NCBI GenBank assembly: GCA_964590075.1
Contig: CAZPXS010000005.1
Span: 111,114-175,113, forward strand
Length of the DNA: 64,000 nucleotides
Reading direction: 5' to 3'
Source: an uncultured Aquificales bacterium
Lineage (GTDB): Bacteria > Thermosulfidibacterota > Thermosulfidibacteria > Thermosulfidibacterales > Thermosulfidibacteraceae
Shown: positions 54,797 to 64,000 of the stretch, one piece after another
Numbering within the stretch: position 1 is the first letter of the stretch
Layout of the letters: each line of letters begins with the position of its first letter
Made by a program: the position numbers and the translations under genes
Notes under the pieces: generated by a model
What the model was told of the DNA's origin: nothing
Databases searched by the model: none
What the model saw: only the letters and a program-made list of their open reading frames with translations

Positions 54797-54825
54797 TTGA
54801 CAAAGAATTTTTTACATTGTATTTT
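54797..54825 (+). promoter_or_regulatory. Sigma-70-type promoter of the fadR-fadN-fadA-fadE operon
   Basis: TTGACA (54797-54802), 17-nt spacer, TATTTT (54820-54825). Confidence 0.45.
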
Positions 54826-54832
54826 TGGATTT

Positions 54833-54850
54833 AATGAGTGACTACTCATT
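54833..54850. promoter_or_regulatory. Inverted repeat AATGAGT-N4-ACTCATT, candidate TetR-family FadR operator
   Basis: Perfect 7-bp arms immediately downstream of the -10, flanked by TCATTCAT. The half-site resembles the B. subtilis FadR (YsiA) box core ..ATGA../..TCATTCA. It lies in the 100-bp divergent region shared with the nudix-aldH transcript. Confidence 0.4.
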
Positions 54851-54867
54851 CATGTAAGGAGGGGAAA

Positions 54868-55464
54868 TTGCCTAGGGTAAAGAGTCCGAATAAGAGGGAG
54901 ATTATAATAGATGCTGCAGAGAAGGTTTTTGCAAGTAAAGGTTATCACAATGCCAGGATTTCGGATGTAGCCAAAGAAGCTAATGTAGCGGAAGGTACTA
55001 TATATCTTTACTTCGAAAGTAAGGAAGATCTACTTCTGGCTATATTCAAGGATAGGATGGGTAAATGGGTGGAAGGGTTGAAGATGGAGTTATCAAAGGT
55101 TTCCGGTAGCCCGATAGAAAAGTTGAGAACTATAATCAACAGTCATTTTACGACACTTTACAATAACCCCCACTGGGCTCAGCTTGTACAGGTTGAGTTG
55201 AGAGCCTGTAGTGTATTCATGCGTGGTGGGAGTACTCCCGAGCTGAGGGAGTACATAAGGGTTATAGAAGCTGTACTTGAGGAGGGTAAGAGAGAAGGTC
55301 TTTTCGATGAGAACCTCAACATATGGGTATCAGCCAGGATGTTGCTTGGAATACTGGATGAATTTTCAACAATATGGGTTTTGAAGAAAAGACTCGATCT
55401 ACCATCATTGGTAGATGTTGTTTTAGATATCTATACGAAGGGTATTCTAAAAAGGGAGGTGTAA
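54868..55464 (+). CDS. fadR: TetR-family transcriptional regulator, FadR(YsiA)-like fatty-acid degradation repressor
   Basis: TetR HTH ([24 protein letters not shown]) plus a C-terminal ligand-binding domain. TTG at 54868 has an AAGGAGGGG RBS 5 nt upstream. The ORF-track GTG start at 54838 would lie inside the operator. Confidence 0.7.
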
Positions 55465-55466
55465 TA

Positions 55467-57845
55467 ATGGGTTACAAGATTAAAAAAGCCGTAGTTTTGG
55501 GTGCTGGTACTATGGGGGCTGGAATTGCAGCCCATCTTGCCAACGTTGGTATTCCTGTACTTTTACTTGATATTCCGGCAAAGGAAGGTCCCGATAGAAA
55601 CGCCATAGTAAGAGGTGGGTTTGAGAGAGCCTTGAAGTCGAAACCGCCCGCCTTTTACCACAAAAGTTTCGCGGAATTGATTGAGATAGGTAACTTTGAG
55701 GATGATATGCCAAAAATCCATGATGCCGATCTCATAATTGAGGCTGTTCTTGAGCAACTCGATGTTAAGAGGAAACTCTTCTTGGAGGTCGAGAAGTATA
55801 GGAGGCCGGGTAGCATAGTTGCTACCAATACTTCGGGTATATCGATAAATAAGATAGCGGAAGGTTTTAGCGATGATTTTAGGAAACATTTCATAGGTAT
55901 GCATTTCTTCAATCCACCCCGTTACATGAAACTACTCGAGATAATCCCCGGTAAGGATACACTCAAGGAAGTGGTAGATTTTGTTGCAGATTTTGGTGAA
56001 AGGGTTCTCGGTAAGGGTATAGTTTACGCTAAGGATACTCCCAACTTTATAGCCAACAGGATAGGTACCTTTGGTATGATGTATACACTTAAGCTCATGG
56101 AAGAGCTCAAGATGACCGTGGAAGAGGTAGACGCTATCACCGGTAAAGCAGTAGGTAGGCCAAAAATGGCTACCTTTAGATTAGCCGATCTTGTCGGTGT
56201 GGATATACTCTATCATGTTGCTCTGAATGTCTATGAGAATGCTCCCAACGATGAGATGAGGGATATATTCAAACCACCACAATGGCTCGAAAGAATGCTA
56301 CAGGAAAAACTCCTTGGAGATAAGACCAAGGCTGGCTTTTATAAGAAAGCCACGATCAACGGTAAGAAGGTGAATCTGGTACTTGATCTTGAAACATTCC
56401 AGTATAGAGAACCTGCAAAACCTACCTTCCCCTCTCTAGAGATGGCAAAGACAGAAGAGGATATAAAGAACAGATTGAGAATAATGTGTTATGGTAAGGA
56501 TAAGGCGAGTATATTCACCTGGAAGTCTATCAGTGCTTTACTGATCTACTCCGCCAACAGGATACCAGAGATTGCGGATGATATTGTTCAGATAGACAAC
56601 GCTATGAAATGGGGATTCAACTGGGAATTAGGTCCCTTTGAGATATGGGATGCAATAGGTGTTAGAAAATCGGTAGAAAGAATGGAAAAAGAGGGCATGG
56701 TAGTTCCCAATAAGGTAAAAAGAATGCTCGAGAAGAATGCAGAATCCTTCTACAAGGAGGAGAATGGAGTAGTATACTACTGGGATTTTGCTACGGAAAG
56801 CTATAAAGAGGTCCCAACAAAGCCCGAGATCATCAATCTTGCAATACTAAAGAGAAACAACAGGGTTATAAAGGAAAACGCCGATGCTTCTCTCATAGAT
56901 CTCGGGGATGGTGTCCTTTGTCTCGAATTCCATACAAAGATGAACGCTCTTGGTGCCGGGATACTTCAGATGCTTGAAGAAGCACTGGAGGAGGTTGATA
57001 AAAACCATCTTGGTCTTGTTATCGCTAATCAGGGTCAGCATTTCTCAGCGGGAGCCAATCTTGCCATAATCCTGTCTGCTATTCAGGAAGAGGAGTGGGA
57101 TGAGATAGACTATATGGTAAGGGCTTTCCAGAAGGCCACCATGTCTATGAAGTTATTTGAAAAACCGATAGTTTCTGCACCCTTTAACATCACGGTAGGT
57201 GGTGGCTGCGAGTTTTGTCTACATACACACAGAATAAGAGCACATGCCGAACTATACATGGGACTTGTTGAGGTAGGAGTTGGTTTGGTACCGGCAGGTG
57301 GCGGAACCAAGGAAATGTTATTGAGGTTGGTAGATTCCTATGTACCCGAGGATATGCCAAGGGGTGTGGTGGTAGATCCTTTCCCTCACCTAAGAAGAGC
57401 CCTAGAAACCATAGCTATGGCGAAGGTCTCATCAAGTGCCTACGAAGCAAAGGAAATGGGCTTCCTAAAGGAATGTGATAGCATCTCTGTAAATAGGGAT
57501 TATCTCATCTACGAGGCGAAACAGGTTGTCCTGAACCTTGTAAAGGAAGGGTTTAAACCACCAAGGGTTAGAAAGGTAAAGATGACAGGTAGAGATGGAT
57601 TCTCCTTCCTTAAGATGCTCATCTACAATATGCAGGTTGGTGGATGGATATCCGAACATGATGCCAAGATCGCCACATGGATAGCCAAGATCCTAACTGG
57701 TGGTGATGTACTACCTGGTACCGTTATGACAGAGTGGGATATACTGGACCTTGAAAGGGAAGCTTTCCTATCACTGTGCGGTGAACCCAAGACCAAGGAT
57801 AGAATAGTTCACATGTTAACTACAGGTAAACCATTGAGAAATTAA
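55467..57845 (+). CDS. fadN: Bifunctional 3-hydroxyacyl-CoA dehydrogenase (N-terminal) / enoyl-CoA hydratase (C-terminal), FadN-type
   Basis: 793 aa. N-terminal Rossmann [12 protein letters not shown], 3HCDH motifs, C-terminal crotonase fold. ATG at 55467 with AAAGGGAGGTG RBS. The ORF-track 5' extension reads through the fadR 3' end. Confidence 0.85.
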
Positions 57846-57868
57846 AAATTTTAAAGAGAGGTGTAACT

Positions 57869-59062
57869 ATGAGGCAAGCGGTTATAGTTTCTGCTGTAAG
57901 GACTGCGGTGGGTAAGGCTCCTAAGGGAACCTTAAAGGATACGAGGCCTGATGATCTCGCAGGCCTCGTGGTTAGAGAAGTTGTCAGAAGAGCGGGAATC
58001 GATCCTTCACTTGTTGAAGATGTTATTATGGGCTGTGCCTTCCCCGAAGGTGAACAGGGGATGAATATCGGAAGAATTGCCGCTATCAAGGCAGGTCTTC
58101 CAACGAGCGCCTGTGGTATGACCATAAACAGGTTCTGCTCATCCGGGCTACAGGCTATAGCTATAGCCGCAGGGCATATCCTGTCTGGCTATGCGGATGT
58201 GATAGTAGCAGGTGGTGTGGAATCTATGAGTATGATTCCAATGGGAGGACTCAGACAGACCGCCAATCCAGAGCTTATGGATTCCTTCCCACAGTTATAC
58301 ATGGCTATGGGTAACACTGCGGAGATCGTTGCGGAGAGATATGGTATAACGAGAGAGGAACAGGATCAGTTTGCCTATAGATCCCATATGAGAGCTGCAA
58401 AGGCCATAAAAGAGGGTAAGTTTGATGAAGAGATAGTGCCCGTAAGGACAAGGGTCCTTAGACAGAGACCGGATGGTACTACATACGAGGAAGAAGTTGA
58501 ATTTAAGGTGGATGAGGGAGTAAGGCCAGATACAACGATAGAGGCTCTTAGCAAGTTACCTCCTGCCTTCTGGCCACCTGGTAAAGGTACCGTTACTGCT
58601 GGAAACTCCTCCCAGATGTCTGATGGAGCTGCCTGTGTTCTCATAATGTCCGACAAGAAGGCTCAGGAACTTGGATTAAAGCCACTTGCCATATTCAGGG
58701 GTTTTGCTGTAGGTGGTGTTGATCCTGAGGTTATGGGGATTGGTCCTACCGTTGCTGTACCCAAGTTACTTGAAAGAACTGGCTTAAAAATTGAGGACAT
58801 AGATCTGATAGAGTTGAACGAAGCTTTTGCCGCTCAGTCACTCGCCTGTATAAAGATTCTCGGTTGGAAGGAGATCATGGAGGACAAGATCAATGTCAAC
58901 GGAGGAGCCATAGCTCTCGGTCATCCGCTTGGTTGTACAGGTGCGAAACTAACGGTACAGTTGATCTACGAATTGAGAAGAAGGGGTGGCAAGTACGGGA
59001 TAGTCACCATGTGTATTGGTGGTGGTATGGGAGCGGCAGGTCTATTCGAAATAGTTTATTAA
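57869..59062 (+). CDS. fadA: Acetyl-CoA C-acyltransferase (thiolase)
   Basis: 397 aa. Active-site Cys ([10 protein letters not shown]), His ([15 protein letters not shown]) and C-terminal Cys (MCIGGGMG). Confidence 0.9.
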
Positions 59063-59086
59063 ACCAAATAATTGGAGGAGGTTATT

Positions 59087-60853
59087 ATGGCAGAGTTTAA
59101 AAAGGGTGGGATTTTCCTTGTAGAATCTGCAAATCCAAAGGATGTCTTCATTCCTGAGGAGTTTACCGAAGAACAGAGGATGTTTGCTAAGACCGCGGAA
59201 GATTTCATCAAGAAAGAGGTAATGCCCCATGCCGATGAGATTGAGAAGAAGAATTACGAAGTGCATGTTGAAATCTTCAGAAAGGCTGGTGAACTTGGCT
59301 TACTAGGTGTGGAGGTACCGGAGGAATACGGTGGGCTTGGGCTTGATAAGGTAAGCGCTATGCTTGTTAGTGAAAAGATGTCAACCGGTATAAGTTCATT
59401 TACCACCACCGTTATGGCCCACACAGGTATAGGAACTCTACCGTTACTATACTTTGGAACCGAGGAACAGAAACAGAAATATCTACCTAAACTCGCAACT
59501 GGCGAATGGATTGGTGCTTATGCCTTAACCGAGACCAACGCAGGTAGTGATGCTATGAACATAAAAACGAAAGCGGTAAGGGAAGGTGACTATTGGGTTC
59601 TTAACGGTTCCAAACAGTTTATAACAAACGCAGGTTTTGCCAATCTTTTCACCGTCTATGCAAAGGTTGATGGTGAGAAGATGGCAGCATTCTTGGTGGA
59701 AAGAAATACGGAAGGTTTTACCATTGGTCCCGAAGAACATAAGATGGGAATAGTCGGTTCATCCACATGTCCTTTGTACTTCGATAACGCAAAGGTACCC
59801 AAAGAGAACCTATTAGGTGGAGAGGAGTGGATAGGTAAGGGACATCTAATAGCTTTCAACGTACTAAACATAGGTAGATATAAACTTGCAATGGGAGCTC
59901 TTGGTGGTAGTAAGGTAGCTCTCGAGGAAGCTGTTAAATACACAAATCAGAGACAACAGTTTGGAAGACCTATATCCAGCTTTGACATGATAAAGGAAAA
60001 GATAGCTAGAATGGCTACCAAAATATGGGCCCTCGAGTCCGCGACATATAGAACTGCTGGTATGATAGAGGAAGCCTTCCAGAAACTTCAGGATAGAAGC
60101 CCGATAGATAGATTATCGGAATACGCTATAGAATGTTCTATCCTTAAGGTTTACGGATCAGAGGTATTGGATAGGGTGGTTGATGATGCTCTACAGTGTT
60201 ACGGTGGTTACGGCTATACCGAAGAGTATCCTGCCGCAAGAGCCTATAGAGATGCTAGGATTAACAGGATCTGGGAAGGTACCAACGAGATTAACAGATT
60301 GGTTATAGTTGCTACCATAGCCAGAAAGGCAGAGAAGGGAGATATACCGCTTATTCAGGCTGCTACGAAGGTTGGTAAGGAAATTCTTACACTAATGCCT
60401 CAGGCACTATTGAAGCCCGGTTTCTTAGCCGAAGAGAAACTCCTCGTAGATATGGTGAGAACCCTACTGTTACTTACAAGTGGTATAGCGGTCCAAAAGT
60501 TCAAGGACAAGTTGAGAGATGAACAGATAGTTGTAGAAGCTCTGGCCGATATAGCTATAAATCTGTTTGTTATGGAAAGTGCATTACTAAGGACCCTGAA
60601 ACTCTACGAGGAATTTGGAGAGGATAAAGTCAAGTACCAAAAGGCCCTTACAAAATACCTATTTTATCTCACCTTGCCTATAGTGAACCATAATGCTGTT
60701 AAGGTTATAACTTCCTGTGAAACTGGAGACACCTTGAGAACACAGATGTCACTGATAAGGAAACTCACGAGATGGTACATACCCGATAATCCTGTGAGCC
60801 TTATAAGAACCATAGCAGACAAGGTTATAGAAGAGGAAAAGTATCCATTCTAA
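59087..60853 (+). CDS. fadE: Acyl-CoA dehydrogenase (long, FadE/YusJ-type)
   Basis: 589 aa. ACAD N/M/C domains (GAYALTETNAGSD; catalytic Glu region YGGYGYTEEYP) plus a C-terminal extension. GGAGGAGG RBS before the ATG at 59087. Confidence 0.85.
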   Translation: MAEFKKGGIFLVESANPKDVFIPEEFTEEQRMFAKTAEDFIKKEVMPHADEIEKKNYEVHVEIFRKAGELGLLGVEVPEEYGGLGLDKVSAMLVSEKMSTGISSFTTTVMAHTGIGTLPLLYFGTEEQKQKYLPKLATGEWIGAYALTETNAGSDAMNIKTKAVREGDYWVLNGSKQFITNAGFANLFTVYAKVDGEKMAAFLVERNTEGFTIGPEEHKMGIVGSSTCPLYFDNAKVPKENLLGGEEWIGKGHLIAFNVLNIGRYKLAMGALGGSKVALEEAVKYTNQRQQFGRPISSFDMIKEKIARMATKIWALESATYRTAGMIEEAFQKLQDRSPIDRLSEYAIECSILKVYGSEVLDRVVDDALQCYGGYGYTEEYPAARAYRDARINRIWEGTNEINRLVIVATIARKAEKGDIPLIQAATKVGKEILTLMPQALLKPGFLAEEKLLVDMVRTLLLLTSGIAVQKFKDKLRDEQIVVEALADIAINLFVMESALLRTLKLYEEFGEDKVKYQKALTKYLFYLTLPIVNHNAVKVITSCETGDTLRTQMSLIRKLTRWYIPDNPVSLIRTIADKVIEEEKYPF

Positions 60854-60867
60854 TCTCTAATGGTGAA

Positions 60868-60898
60868 GGCGGGGTCGATAGTTACCCCGCCTTTTTTT
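60868..60898 (+). terminator. Rho-independent terminator after fadE
   Basis: GGCGGGGT-cgatagtt-ACCCCGCC hairpin followed by T7. Confidence 0.7.
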
Positions 60899-60931
60899 AA
60901 CAAAAAATTTTAAATAAAATGCTGTTTAATA

Positions 60932-60960
60932 TTGACAGTTTAAAAGAATTTTGATAATAC
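60932..60960 (+). promoter_or_regulatory. Sigma-70-type promoter for the secreted hypothetical / fadD / fadL unit
   Basis: TTGACA (60932-60937), 17-nt spacer, TAATAC (60955-60960). Confidence 0.45.
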
Positions 60961-60980
60961 TCTGTATGGGAGGTAGAAAA

Positions 60981-61634
60981 ATGTTTGAAAGATTAAGGAT
61001 ATCCACAACATTCACCGTAATAATTTTGATGGTAGTTTTTGGTAAAAATGTTTATTCTGAGGAATGCTCACAAATTTTAAAACAAAGTTTATCGAAAGTT
61101 GAAAAGATTAAGGATTACAGTGCGATAGTAGAGACCTTTAATAAAAAGGGTAAATTGGAGGAAACTACGGTTTATGATTATAAGTATCTTAGTCCTGGTT
61201 ACATAAGGATGAAGGTTATTGAAGGTAGGAAGAAGGGCGGAGAGGTATTTTTCGATCCTAAGGCTTATAAGGTGAAGGGTTGTAAAAGTGTTGTTTTTAA
61301 GTTTTGCAAGGAGTTCAATCCCGATGACAACGATATAAGATCCATTAGAGGGGTGAGAGTCTTTGAAACAAGCCTTGTAAACATTCTAAAGGATACCGAA
61401 AAGAACCTCTCAAAGGGAGTCTGTTCCGTTAAAACTGAAGGTGCCTTTGATGTCCTTGAGATCAACTTAGGAGAAAAGGATAAGGATGTGGATAGGATAG
61501 TCCTAAAGATAGGAAAGAAAGATTTTATCCCCTATGTCTGGGAAAAGTACGGTAACAACCAACTATTATATAGGTTATCCATTAAGAATCTCAAAACTAA
61601 CATTGGGTTAAAACTTGAAGAACTTGCTCTATAG
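60981..61634 (+). CDS. Secreted/periplasmic hypothetical protein (about 217 aa) inside the fatty-acid utilisation cluster
   Basis: ATG at 60981 with GGGAGG RBS. Signal peptide MFERLRISTTFTVIILMVVFGKNVYS|EE. Beta-rich, K/E-rich mature part with three Cys. AT-rich (about 30% GC) relative to its neighbours. Confidence 0.5.
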   Translation: MFERLRISTTFTVIILMVVFGKNVYSEECSQILKQSLSKVEKIKDYSAIVETFNKKGKLEETTVYDYKYLSPGYIRMKVIEGRKKGGEVFFDPKAYKVKGCKSVVFKFCKEFNPDDNDIRSIRGVRVFETSLVNILKDTEKNLSKGVCSVKTEGAFDVLEINLGEKDKDVDRIVLKIGKKDFIPYVWEKYGNNQLLYRLSIKNLKTNIGLKLEELAL

Positions 61635-61644
61635 GGAGGTGACG

Positions 61645-63315
61645 ATGGCTGAGGTATCTACAGAGAGTATATATCTAAAAAAACCTTGGTTAAAAAACTA
61701 TCCAGAGGAGGTACCAGAAACTCTCAAATATCCCGATGAACCTCTATACTGGCTCCTTGATGAAGCCTATCGTGAATTCAAGGATAAAATAGCCATGGTA
61801 TTCTACGATAAAAAATGGACCTATAGAGAACTATATGATGCACATTTAAGATTGGCATATTTTCTACAAAAGGAGCTAAATGTAAAACCTCAGCAGAGAA
61901 TCGCTCTATTACTTCCAAACTGTCCTCTTTATCCTATCAGTTACTTTGGTATCCTCAGGATAAACGGAATAGTTGTTCAATTAAATCCTCTTTACAGTGA
62001 GTATGAACTAGAAAAGCTCATAGAGGATAGTGGTAGCGAGATCATCATTACCTTAGATATACTAACTCATAAGCTCGAAAGGGCGGTAGAAAAAGGTCTC
62101 ATAAAGACCATTATCTTCTCCAATATGAAGGATTTCTTACCATTTCCCCTTAATCTACTCTTCCCACTGAAAACATGGAGGTTACCCAAGCTAAAATCAA
62201 AGAAGGCAAGGATGATAAACTTTAAGGATATTCCGTATGGGAAGCCTGATAGTGTCAATATAGTGCCCGATGAGGACGTGGCGGTTTTTCAGTATACGGG
62301 AGGTACAACCGGCTTATCCAAGGCAGCGATGCTGACTCATAAGAATATACTATCCAATGTGATACAACTTGCCGCTTGGGCCTATAAAGCGGAGAGAGGC
62401 AAAGAGGTAACTCTTGCGGTCTTACCTTTTTTCCATGTTTATGGTATGACCGTTGGAATGCTTTTTACGATATACGCTGGTGGGACTCTCGTTCTTGAGC
62501 CAAGGTTTGATGTAGAAAGGGTTGTAAAGCTCATAGAAAAATATAGAGTCACAATGCTACCTGGTGTGCCCACGATGTACGTGGCTATTAATAAGGTTGC
62601 CTCGAGTAAAAAGGTCGATCTTACTAGTATGAAATTCTGTTTGAGTGGTGGTGCTCCATTACCGGTTGAGGTGGCCAACGAGTTCGAGAAATTGACGGGA
62701 GCAACCTTGAGAGAAGGATACGGATTGTCAGAAACAAGTCCAGTGACTCATGCCAATTTAGCCTACGCTCCGCCAAGAAAGGGCAGTATAGGAATCCCTG
62801 TACCCGATACTCTGGCTAGGATAGTGGATGTTGAGAGTGGTAAGGAGGTTCCAGTTGGTACACCTGGTGAACTCTGTATAAAGGGACCTCAGGTTATGAA
62901 GGGTTACTGGAATAGACCCGAGGAGAATAAAATAGCTTTCGATGAGGAAGGGTGGTTCCATACCGGTGATATAGCCATTATGGATGAGGACGGTTATTTC
63001 TATATAGTTGATAGAAAGAAGGATATGATAATCGCAGGTGGTTACAACATTTATCCAAGGGAGGTGGAAGAGGTTTTATATGCTCATCCCAAGGTTTTAG
63101 AGGCAGCGGTTGTTGGTGTCAAAGACGAGTATAGGGGAGAGACCGTTAAGGCCTATATAGTGCTAAAGTCGGGTATGACCGCTACCGCCGATGAGATAAT
63201 CAGTTTCTGTAAAGAAAGACTCGCATCATACAAGGTACCAAAGATCGTAGAGTTCGTGAATGAGTTACCGAAAAGTCCTATAGGTAAGGTTTTGAAGAGG
63301 GAATTGAGAAAGTGA
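61645..63315 (+). CDS. fadD: Long-chain-fatty-acid--CoA ligase (AMP-forming)
   Basis: AMP-binding motif (FQYTGGTTGLSKAAMLTHKN), GYGLSET, and C-terminal PKSPIGKVLKRELR. ATG at 61645 with GGGAGGTGA RBS. Confidence 0.85.
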   Translation: MAEVSTESIYLKKPWLKNYPEEVPETLKYPDEPLYWLLDEAYREFKDKIAMVFYDKKWTYRELYDAHLRLAYFLQKELNVKPQQRIALLLPNCPLYPISYFGILRINGIVVQLNPLYSEYELEKLIEDSGSEIIITLDILTHKLERAVEKGLIKTIIFSNMKDFLPFPLNLLFPLKTWRLPKLKSKKARMINFKDIPYGKPDSVNIVPDEDVAVFQYTGGTTGLSKAAMLTHKNILSNVIQLAAWAYKAERGKEVTLAVLPFFHVYGMTVGMLFTIYAGGTLVLEPRFDVERVVKLIEKYRVTMLPGVPTMYVAINKVASSKKVDLTSMKFCLSGGAPLPVEVANEFEKLTGATLREGYGLSETSPVTHANLAYAPPRKGSIGIPVPDTLARIVDVESGKEVPVGTPGELCIKGPQVMKGYWNRPEENKIAFDEEGWFHTGDIAIMDEDGYFYIVDRKKDMIIAGGYNIYPREVEEVLYAHPKVLEAAVVGVKDEYRGETVKAYIVLKSGMTATADEIISFCKERLASYKVPKIVEFVNELPKSPIGKVLKRELRK

Positions 63316-63378
63316 AAAATAACTGTGAAGTGAACTTTGGTAGAGGTTACTCAGCAATAAAATTTAAGGAGGTGGGTT

Positions 63379-64000
63379 ATGTTAGCTATCTTTACTAGTT
63401 TGTTCCTATTTTTCTTTACATTCCTAATATCTGGTGTAGCGGTAGCGGGCAATGTTGAAACACTTGGTGTAGGAGCTAAGGCTACTTCGTTAGGTGGTGC
63501 TTTTTCTGCAAGAGCCGATGATTTTTCGGCCATGTATTACAATCCCGCAGGTATAGTTCAGCTTAGTAGACCTCAGATTTCTGTAGGAACAAGTATAGTC
63601 AACCCATCCCTTGCAGCAAAGACCGATTATAGAAATGAATACGAGGAAGTTATTGGTGGGTTTAGTAAAGATAAGAGCCAGTTGTTAGTCTATCCACATG
63701 CCGGTTTTATCTATCCCTTCCAGCTATTCGGGAAAAAGGCGGCCTTTGGAATTGCCACCTATGTACCCTACGGTCTGTGGCTTGGGTGGAAGGAAGATCC
63801 GAGTAAAAACCCAGGTGCCTATAATACCTATGAATCCTGGTACTATAGGGTAGTTTCCGCATCTCCTACTTTAGCTATCCAGTTGACCGATAGACTGATG
63901 GTTGGTTTTAACGTTGCCTTCGGTAACTCCCACTCGGGTGTGTATAGAAGGATTTATCAGAGTCCATTTATAGTCCAAACGGGAACTCTTATTTCTGGAT
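63379..64000 (+). CDS. fadL: FadL/OmpP1/TodX-family outer-membrane long-chain fatty acid (hydrophobic compound) channel, 5' part only
   Basis: Signal peptide plus N-terminal hatch motif (GAKATSLGGAFSARADDFSAMYYNPAGI). AAGGAGGTG RBS. Runs off the window end. Confidence 0.7.
   Translation, partial: MLAIFTSLFLFFFTFLISGVAVAGNVETLGVGAKATSLGGAFSARADDFSAMYYNPAGIVQLSRPQISVGTSIVNPSLAAKTDYRNEYEEVIGGFSKDKSQLLVYPHAGFIYPFQLFGKKAAFGIATYVPYGLWLGWKEDPSKNPGAYNTYESWYYRVVSASPTLAIQLTDRLMVGFNVAFGNSHSGVYRRIYQSPFIVQTGTLISG

Follow-up and report, generated by a model that had tools for sequence, protein, structure and literature searches.

What is a small secreted protein doing at the head of a gene cluster for the activation and uptake of long-chain fatty acids? 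The question is raised by 64,000 nucleotides of DNA from an uncultured Aquificales bacterium (contig CAZPXS010000005.1, positions 111,114 to 175,113; this whole stretch is the window referred to below), in which a gene for a protein of 217 amino acids lies between fadE, the last gene of a beta-oxidation unit, and fadD, which encodes a long-chain acyl-coenzyme A (CoA) ligase and is followed by a gene for a FadL-type outer-membrane channel. An initial annotation, made from the sequence alone, had proposed a periplasmic carrier acting between FadL and FadD. The fold, the linkage and the operon signals all speak for this proposal, whereas fatty-acid binding and transfer are the part that we infer, and we judge the chances to be about even that the LolA-like protein receives long acyl chains from an outer-membrane channel and hands them on to FadD and the inner membrane.

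The open reading frame runs from an ATG codon at 60981 to a TAG codon at 61632-61634. Its product begins with MFERLR, a hydrophobic core of 15 residues and then VYS/EE, which can be read as the n-, h- and c-regions of a signal peptide, as the initial annotation had recognized. This peptide is predicted to be of the cleavable, signal-peptidase-I type, and those of the relatives appear alike; the protein has no lipobox, and a loose lipobox match was found in only 5 of 81 family members. The mature protein (residues 28-217, ∼190 amino acids) is a single domain and is basic, with 37 lysine and arginine residues versus 28 aspartate and glutamate residues. A longer version starting at TTG 60951 (227 amino acids) was rejected because that codon lies within the promoter-like site described below and lacks a ribosome-binding site (RBS), and gene callers choose the ATG on identical contigs.

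The family affiliation of the protein was not evident from routine comparisons. A word-indexed search of 5.8 billion proteins gave just eight relatives, and the kinship with DUF1571 and LolA_like emerged only through an exhaustive hidden Markov model (HMM) search with an alignment of those relatives, which returned 468 representatives at E <= 1e-3, only 14 of them at E <= 1e-30. When 81 aligned family members were scanned, 45 matched DUF1571, 29 matched LolA_like (best E 2.3e-9) and seven matched the MucB_RseB N-terminal domain, and a profile of the close clade retrieved bona fide DUF1571 proteins with E values down to 1e-40. The window protein itself has no match to LolA_like (PF17131) in the Pfam scan, its close relatives have only faint DUF1571 matches, and a sequence search of the PDB gave no useful match, the best one (E 0.022) being an unrelated protein. 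The HMM comparisons identify it as a divergent homolog at the edge of the uncharacterized DUF1571/LolA_like families, not the member of an unknown family that it had first been taken for, and the fad-linked clade to which it belongs is a distinct small subgroup of these families. No paralog was found within the 64-kb window.

A first structure model built from eight sequences was mediocre (predicted local distance difference test score, pLDDT, 75.8) and was superseded by a model from 81 sequences. The predicted fold is an unclosed antiparallel beta-barrel of 11 strands with alpha-helices, typical of the LolA superfamily and in line with the LolA- or LppX-like cavity protein envisaged in the initial annotation. 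Structural matches include LolA, RseB, LprG and LppX, the majority being LolA proteins, with scores of 15.7 for a LolA-like protein of Bacteroides uniformis (4mxt), 14.5 for TTHA1012, 13.4 for RseB, 13.2 for Escherichia coli LolA, 10.8-11.6 for LprF, LprG and LppX, and 10.3-10.6 for LolB. Foldseek concurs (probability 1.0, template-modeling score up to 0.62/0.70). Also among the matches are 8t5t, a LolA crystallized with stearic acid, and LolA3 of Porphyromonas gingivalis. On this model the gene product is a secreted single-domain LolA-fold protein.

The match to RseB raises the idea of a periplasmic lipid sensor of the RseB/MucB kind that would relay a regulatory signal. RseB and MucB are two-domain proteins of 260-290 amino acids encoded with sigma-E and an anti-sigma factor, whereas the window protein, at 217 amino acids, has a single domain without the RseB C-terminal domain, and no sigma or anti-sigma gene is present in any examined locus. 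Regulation of the cluster is, moreover, already explained by a cytoplasmic TetR-type repressor with a recognizable operator, and we consider a sensor function very improbable.

If the LolA-like protein serves fatty-acid uptake, its gene should keep company with the genes of that pathway. We gathered 31 loci and annotated their open reading frames by BLASTP against the proteins of the window locus; they represent 13 distinct close-clade lineages spanning 32-100% identity to the window protein, with a Thermosulfidibacter sp. metagenome-assembled genome (MAG) and a Thermodesulfobacteriota MAG as the named relatives. Genome and metagenome scans with the close-clade alignment returned only close relatives. 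A FadD ortholog (34-100% identity) is encoded by the next gene in every one of the 13 lineages, with a gap of 2-20 nt, and the linkage anticipated by the initial annotation extends to FadL (59-71% identity) as the third gene in eight of them. The contig ends before that point in two lineages, and in the remaining three the third gene encodes an unrelated secreted, outer-membrane-like protein of 602-612 amino acids. On the 5′ side lies either fadE directly or fadE with genes for an aldehyde dehydrogenase and a GMC oxidoreductase. The pairing of putative carrier and ligase is thus constant while the outer-membrane partner is swapped, as would be expected if the protein's role depended on the substrate and not on a particular partner protein.

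The same gene orders bear on the possibility that the protein is a dedicated biogenesis chaperone, that is, a LolA paralog that brings either a lipoprotein or its partner channel into place in the outer membrane. Every characterized LolA protein holds its lipoprotein cargo by the acyl chains, LolA proteins form the majority of the structural matches, and specialized LolA paralogs are known, LolA3 of P. gingivalis being one of those matched and LolA1 of Flavobacterium providing the best NCBIfam match. The unit nevertheless contains no lipoprotein, lolCDE or lolB gene (nor were lolCDE or lolB seen at the examined loci, although LolA need not adjoin them), its outer-membrane partner is interchangeable (FadL in eight lineages, the unrelated 602-aa protein in three), and the tight partner is FadD, a cytoplasmic enzyme. 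The usual escort of a beta-barrel protein is SurA or Skp and not LolA, which weighs further against a chaperone, and we think such a role quite unlikely.

Two properties of the LolA-like protein were noted during these comparisons. It diverges much faster than its partners: for the same lineage pairs (window versus L005, L006, L008, L010, L013 and L018, our locus labels), identity is 37-40% for the LolA-like protein versus ∼59% for FadD, 60-70% for FadL and ∼60% for FadE. Four cysteines of the mature protein are kept in both subclades at differing positions, with only the C148 column in common.

The protein that takes the place of FadL is encoded at 11502-13310 of L003, 2705-4543 of L010 and 2401-4197 of L016, and a gene for a second AMP-binding ligase always follows. 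It resembles outer-membrane proteins in composition, ends in GVRFIF, has no transmembrane helix past its signal peptide, shows no similarity to FadL and has no Pfam, NCBIfam or PDB match. Judging from these sequence features, it may represent a new family of outer-membrane channels for hydrophobic substrates.

Signals in the window suggest how the genes are expressed. The strong terminator that the initial annotation had placed after fadE is present, with stem arms at 60865-60875 and 60884-60894 and a T-run reaching 60898; at -20.2 kcal/mol (z -3.7) it was equaled in stability by 1 of 200 shuffled sequences. A simple terminator pattern scan did not pick up this hairpin, which was found by folding. 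On the identical contig L001, where full-length FadL has 495 amino acids, another hairpin stands 3′ of fadL (-21.6 kcal/mol, z -4.05). No strong hairpin was found inside the intervening unit, and the fadD-fadL spacer of 63 nt is unstructured (z -0.15). Because strong terminator hairpins bracket them, we regard the LolA-like gene, fadD and fadL as a probable three-gene unit, and the signals fit the cotranscription with fadD that had been expected. Coupling of the first two genes is close: in TAGGGAGGTGacgATG the final G of the LolA-like stop codon opens the fadD RBS, as previously noted, leaving a gap of 10 nt and placing the fadD start codon at 61645. FadD matches the AMP-binding domain with E 9e-99 and long-chain ligase NCBIfam models with E 1e-148 to 1e-175, under their equivalog cutoffs, and FadL matches Toluene_X with E 2.7e-15 for the partial protein in the window and 5.4e-46 for the full-length L001 copy.

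For the spacer of 127 nt between fadE and the LolA-like gene, Rfam gave only matches below threshold and thus no structured RNA or riboswitch. The spacer does contain the promoter-like site that had been singled out before, TTGACA at 60932-60937 and TAATAC at 60955-60960 with a 17-nt spacer and TG just before the latter. Such a match alone is little proof, because sites of this kind are no commoner in the region than in shuffled sequence (six found versus 7.4 expected). We accept it as a probable promoter because the L003 ortholog, at 59% protein identity, has the same arrangement, TTGACT-17-TATACT at the equivalent spot and likewise 3′ of a terminator. The promoter-like sites of tetR (54797-54825) and of the LolA-like gene (60930-60956) have the strings TATTGACA and AAGAATTTT in common, perhaps by coincidence because the spacers are AT-rich, or perhaps because the two sites follow one promoter design.

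The initial annotation had described the gene as an AT-rich insertion at ∼30% GC among neighbors at ∼45%. A rival explanation would be that a foreign or orphan gene without a role in fatty-acid metabolism landed between fadE and fadD. The measured GC content is 35.2% versus 41-48% for the neighboring genes, against a window mean of 41.2% (standard deviation 3.2), which puts the gene in the bottom 6% of segments of its size. Values close to 30% are confined to the intergenic region (31.5%) and the initial 120 nt of the reading frame (27.5%). This lower GC content and the gene's own terminator and promoter boundary are what a foreign origin would have in its favor. The GC content at third codon positions (GC3) is, however, near normal at 38.5%, compared with 41-44% for tetR, fadA, fadE and fadD and 37.7% for the partial fadL, and the mature protein is 15.8% lysine, so that the low overall value is attributed to a lysine-rich amino-acid composition. 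No mobile-element genes or repeats flank the gene, and orthologous neighbors accompany it in the same position in all 13 lineages, even at 32% identity. Given the conserved synteny, the GC3 and the absence of flanking repeats, we reject foreign insertion, to which we give next to no credence.

Regulation provides a further link to beta-oxidation, at least among the relatives. The first gene of the upstream unit encodes a repressor whose C-terminal domain matches a YsiA-like model, and the 18-bp palindrome preceding it has the pattern TGAGTGA-N4-TCATTCA, resembling the operator to which YsiA/FadR binds in Bacillus. The box recurs in related loci 5′ of tetR, fadE and the aldehyde dehydrogenase gene, as well as immediately 5′ of the LolA-like gene in eight of the 13 lineages, and because of this last position the unit in those eight appears to lie within a beta-oxidation regulon of the FadR type. 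From its distribution the palindrome would mark a small regulon in these lineages. Boxes were located at 434, 4725, 6681 and 9951 of L005, 2988 and 8122 of L008, 2754 and 5096 of L011, 2656 and 7881 of L018, 1799 of L006, 1299 of L013, 349 of L017 and 606 of L026. In the window lineage, L003, L020 and L029 there is no box 5′ of the LolA-like gene, and the spacer contains a terminator or large hairpin instead; L016 was excluded from this judgment, its upstream sequence being too short.

These regulatory and positional data also help to assess a function as a periplasmic buffer or outer-membrane lipid housekeeper, in which the protein would sequester toxic free fatty acids, or draw them out of the inner leaflet of the outer membrane, without delivering them directionally to FadD. 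The fold and linkage evidence serves this explanation as well as it serves a carrier, and the basic, lysine-rich mature protein would suit anionic membrane surfaces. Because substrate leaves FadL sideways, into the outer membrane (PMC9329746), an extraction step is plausible. Tight pairing with fadD and a FadR box common to the catabolic genes point instead to catabolic flux. A buffer overlaps with a carrier, the sole difference being the directionality of transfer, and we regard the former as unlikely.

A carrier of acyl chains is the explanation that we prefer, for it accommodates a secreted LolA fold, a stoichiometric-looking coupling to fadD, a swappable outer-membrane partner and, in relatives, catabolic regulation, and because the characterized members of the fold (LolA, LprG and LppX) all shield acyl chains. 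Building on the secretion signal, the fold, the operon anatomy, the linkage and the operator shared in relatives, we infer that the ligand would be an acyl chain, that the barrel would offer a usable cavity and that transfer would run inward. We predict that the LolA-like protein, FadD and an outer-membrane channel for hydrophobic substrates are made from one transcript, and that the channel admits long-chain fatty acids or long-chain aliphatics related to them. The acyl chain would be loaded onto the carrier where the outer membrane faces the periplasm, shielded through the aqueous periplasm and unloaded at the inner membrane, where the chain would flip and be trapped by FadD as acyl-CoA for the neighboring beta-oxidation enzymes. 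Lateral release by FadL into the outer membrane has been described, with the onward periplasmic step said to be still unclear (PMC9329746); the LolA-like protein is positioned where it could serve that step.

Several observations weigh against this explanation. At the sequence level, the protein scores 15.5 bits with the Pfam LolA model (PF03548), under the cutoff of 23.6, and 20 bits with its best NCBIfam model, LolA1_Flavo, for which the cutoff is 100, and it has no match to DUF1571 (PF07608) at E <= 1. Strand amphipathicity, taken from the sequence as inward versus outward hydrophobicity, was uninformative on the cavity. Three distant DUF1571 relatives sampled for the wider family (27-32% identity) are not fad-linked, so dedication to fatty acids is not a general feature of DUF1571. 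No FadR box was found 5′ of the LolA-like gene of the window, whether up to three mismatches were allowed or a less strict regular expression was used; both searches recovered the tetR copy alone, and coregulation with beta-oxidation therefore holds for relatives only. The cluster has no gene for an inner-membrane acceptor. To our knowledge, no such protein is needed by E. coli or by most other bacteria that have FadL and FadD. The comparative signal is nonetheless unusually clean, though the clade is narrow.

The features of the locus are collected in Table 1.

Table 1. Features of the fad locus in window coordinates; genes of the upstream unit follow the gene calls of the identical contig L001, shifted by 50980
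Feature	Position	Strand	Basis or remark
FadR (TetR/YsiA-type) operator palindrome TGAGTGActacTCATTCA, 18 bp	54835-54852	+	between tetR promoter-like site and tetR RBS
Upstream beta-oxidation unit tetR/fadR-fadN-fadA-fadE	54868-60853	+	
tetR/fadR repressor (TetR/YsiA-type)	54868-55464	+	gene calls, family match
fadN, fused 3-hydroxyacyl-CoA dehydrogenase/enoyl-CoA hydratase	55467-57845	+	gene calls, family match
fadA thiolase	57869-59062	+	gene calls, family match
fadE, long acyl-CoA dehydrogenase	59087-60853	+	gene calls, family match
Intrinsic terminator 3′ of fadE	60865-60898	+	11-bp G+C-rich stem, 8-nt loop, T-run
Promoter-like site TTGACA-17-TAATAC with TG extension	60932-60960	+	
RBS GGGAGGT of LolA-like gene	60968-60975	+	6-7 nt before ATG
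LolA-superfamily periplasmic protein, 217 aa, divergent DUF1571/LolA_like relative, candidate acyl-chain carrier	60981-61634	+	
Predicted Sec signal peptide, residues 1-27	60981-61061	+	cleavage after VYS; read from sequence
fadD RBS GGGAGGTG	61634-61641	+	first base is final G of LolA-like stop codon
FadD-type long-chain acyl-CoA ligase, 556 aa	61645-63315	+	
FadL/TodX-family outer-membrane channel, truncated by window end	63379-64000	+	

The surroundings of the distant relatives and of the unit itself yielded some further observations. The three distant DUF1571 genes stand after rpoA-rplQ, beside a phosphoglycerate mutase gene and beside a nucleotidyltransferase-like gene, respectively, indicating that the fad linkage is a trait of a small subclade. 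The first of these contexts belongs to a relative of 29% identity (L027 4129-4758; L028 4361-4990) placed right after rpsM-rpsK-rpsD-rpoA-rplQ and before a transfer RNA methyltransferase-like gene, and this position after a ribosomal cluster suggests a housekeeping role in the envelope for other branches of DUF1571. Beyond the end of the window and past the fadL terminator, L001 13950-20117 encodes a 156-aa hypothetical protein, an iron-type alcohol dehydrogenase, an aldehyde dehydrogenase, an amidase and a second acyl-CoA ligase. With genes for alcohol and aldehyde processing and an amidase close to the unit, the substrates may include long-chain alcohols, aldehydes or amides besides free fatty acids. 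The 156-aa protein (L001 13950-14420) has hydrophobic ends and no family match; its only PDB match, a sterol carrier protein 2 domain, is nonsignificant (E 0.73) and is not evidence of function.

Comparison with known systems places the LolA-like protein between several precedents. Like LolA, it has a Sec signal and would be a soluble periplasmic protein of ∼180-200 residues with an 11-strand open barrel and helices. It differs from LolA in a sequence match below the family threshold and in its context: LolA has a housekeeping setting and moves lipoproteins outward, whereas the gene here heads a catabolic fadD-fadL operon and its product is proposed to move free acyl chains inward. The DUF1571 and LolA_like proteins are true sequence homologs, with the sampled DUF1571 members found in unrelated contexts in contrast to the fad-linked clade. 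LprG, LppX and LprF are mycobacterial LolA-fold lipid carriers, but these are lipid-anchored lipoproteins that export lipids to the envelope, while the window protein lacks a lipobox and is linked to import and catabolism. MlaC is a soluble periplasmic shuttle for phospholipids between an outer-membrane complex and the inner membrane. The likeness to MlaC is functional only, since fold and family are unrelated and no inner-membrane partner of the MlaFEDB type is present here.

With the classical FadL-FadD pathway of E. coli the locus shares the channel, the ligase and beta-oxidation genes under a fatty-acid-type repressor, although FadR of E. coli is of the GntR type and the repressor here is of the TetR/YsiA type. 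The classical pathway has no periplasmic component, whereas here a third, periplasmic gene heads the operon. ApeL, a LolA paralog inside a pathway-specific aryl-polyene lipid cluster, is a precedent for such specialization and is encoded with an RND (resistance-nodulation-division) transporter and a LolB-like protein for the outward transport of a biosynthetic lipid (PMC8253772). In the present case the gene is accompanied instead by those for an acyl-CoA ligase and a channel for uptake across the outer membrane, and there is no RND or LolB-like gene.

In the literature that we covered, no FadL-FadD import unit is reported to include a LolA-fold protein, DUF1571 is not mentioned, and no paper combines LolA, FadL, FadD and a gene cluster; this coverage is incomplete, and an earlier description is possible. 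The only paper pairing a LolA-like protein with FadL concerns an unrelated MMPL-LolA fusion in Thalassolituus. We rate the chance as somewhat short of even that this clade gives FadL-FadD import its first dedicated shuttle across the periplasm, a LolA fold working inward on long-chain fatty acids or on long-chain aliphatics related to them.

The transit of a water-insoluble fatty acid from FadL to FadD is an acknowledged gap in the textbook pathway (PMC9329746), for which this clade offers a concrete and clonable candidate. Because the lineages are related to thermophiles, the soluble protein of 190 residues may be stable and crystallizable. Should the protein prove to be a chaperone or a sensor instead, its strict pairing with fadD would still want explaining. 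If the carrier function is correct, it would supply, in at least some diderm lineages, the periplasmic step missing from the classical model and would add the inward movement of nutrients to the outward movement of lipoproteins for which the LolA fold is known. A branch of DUF1571 would gain its first function, and searches in other bacteria would have a pointer.

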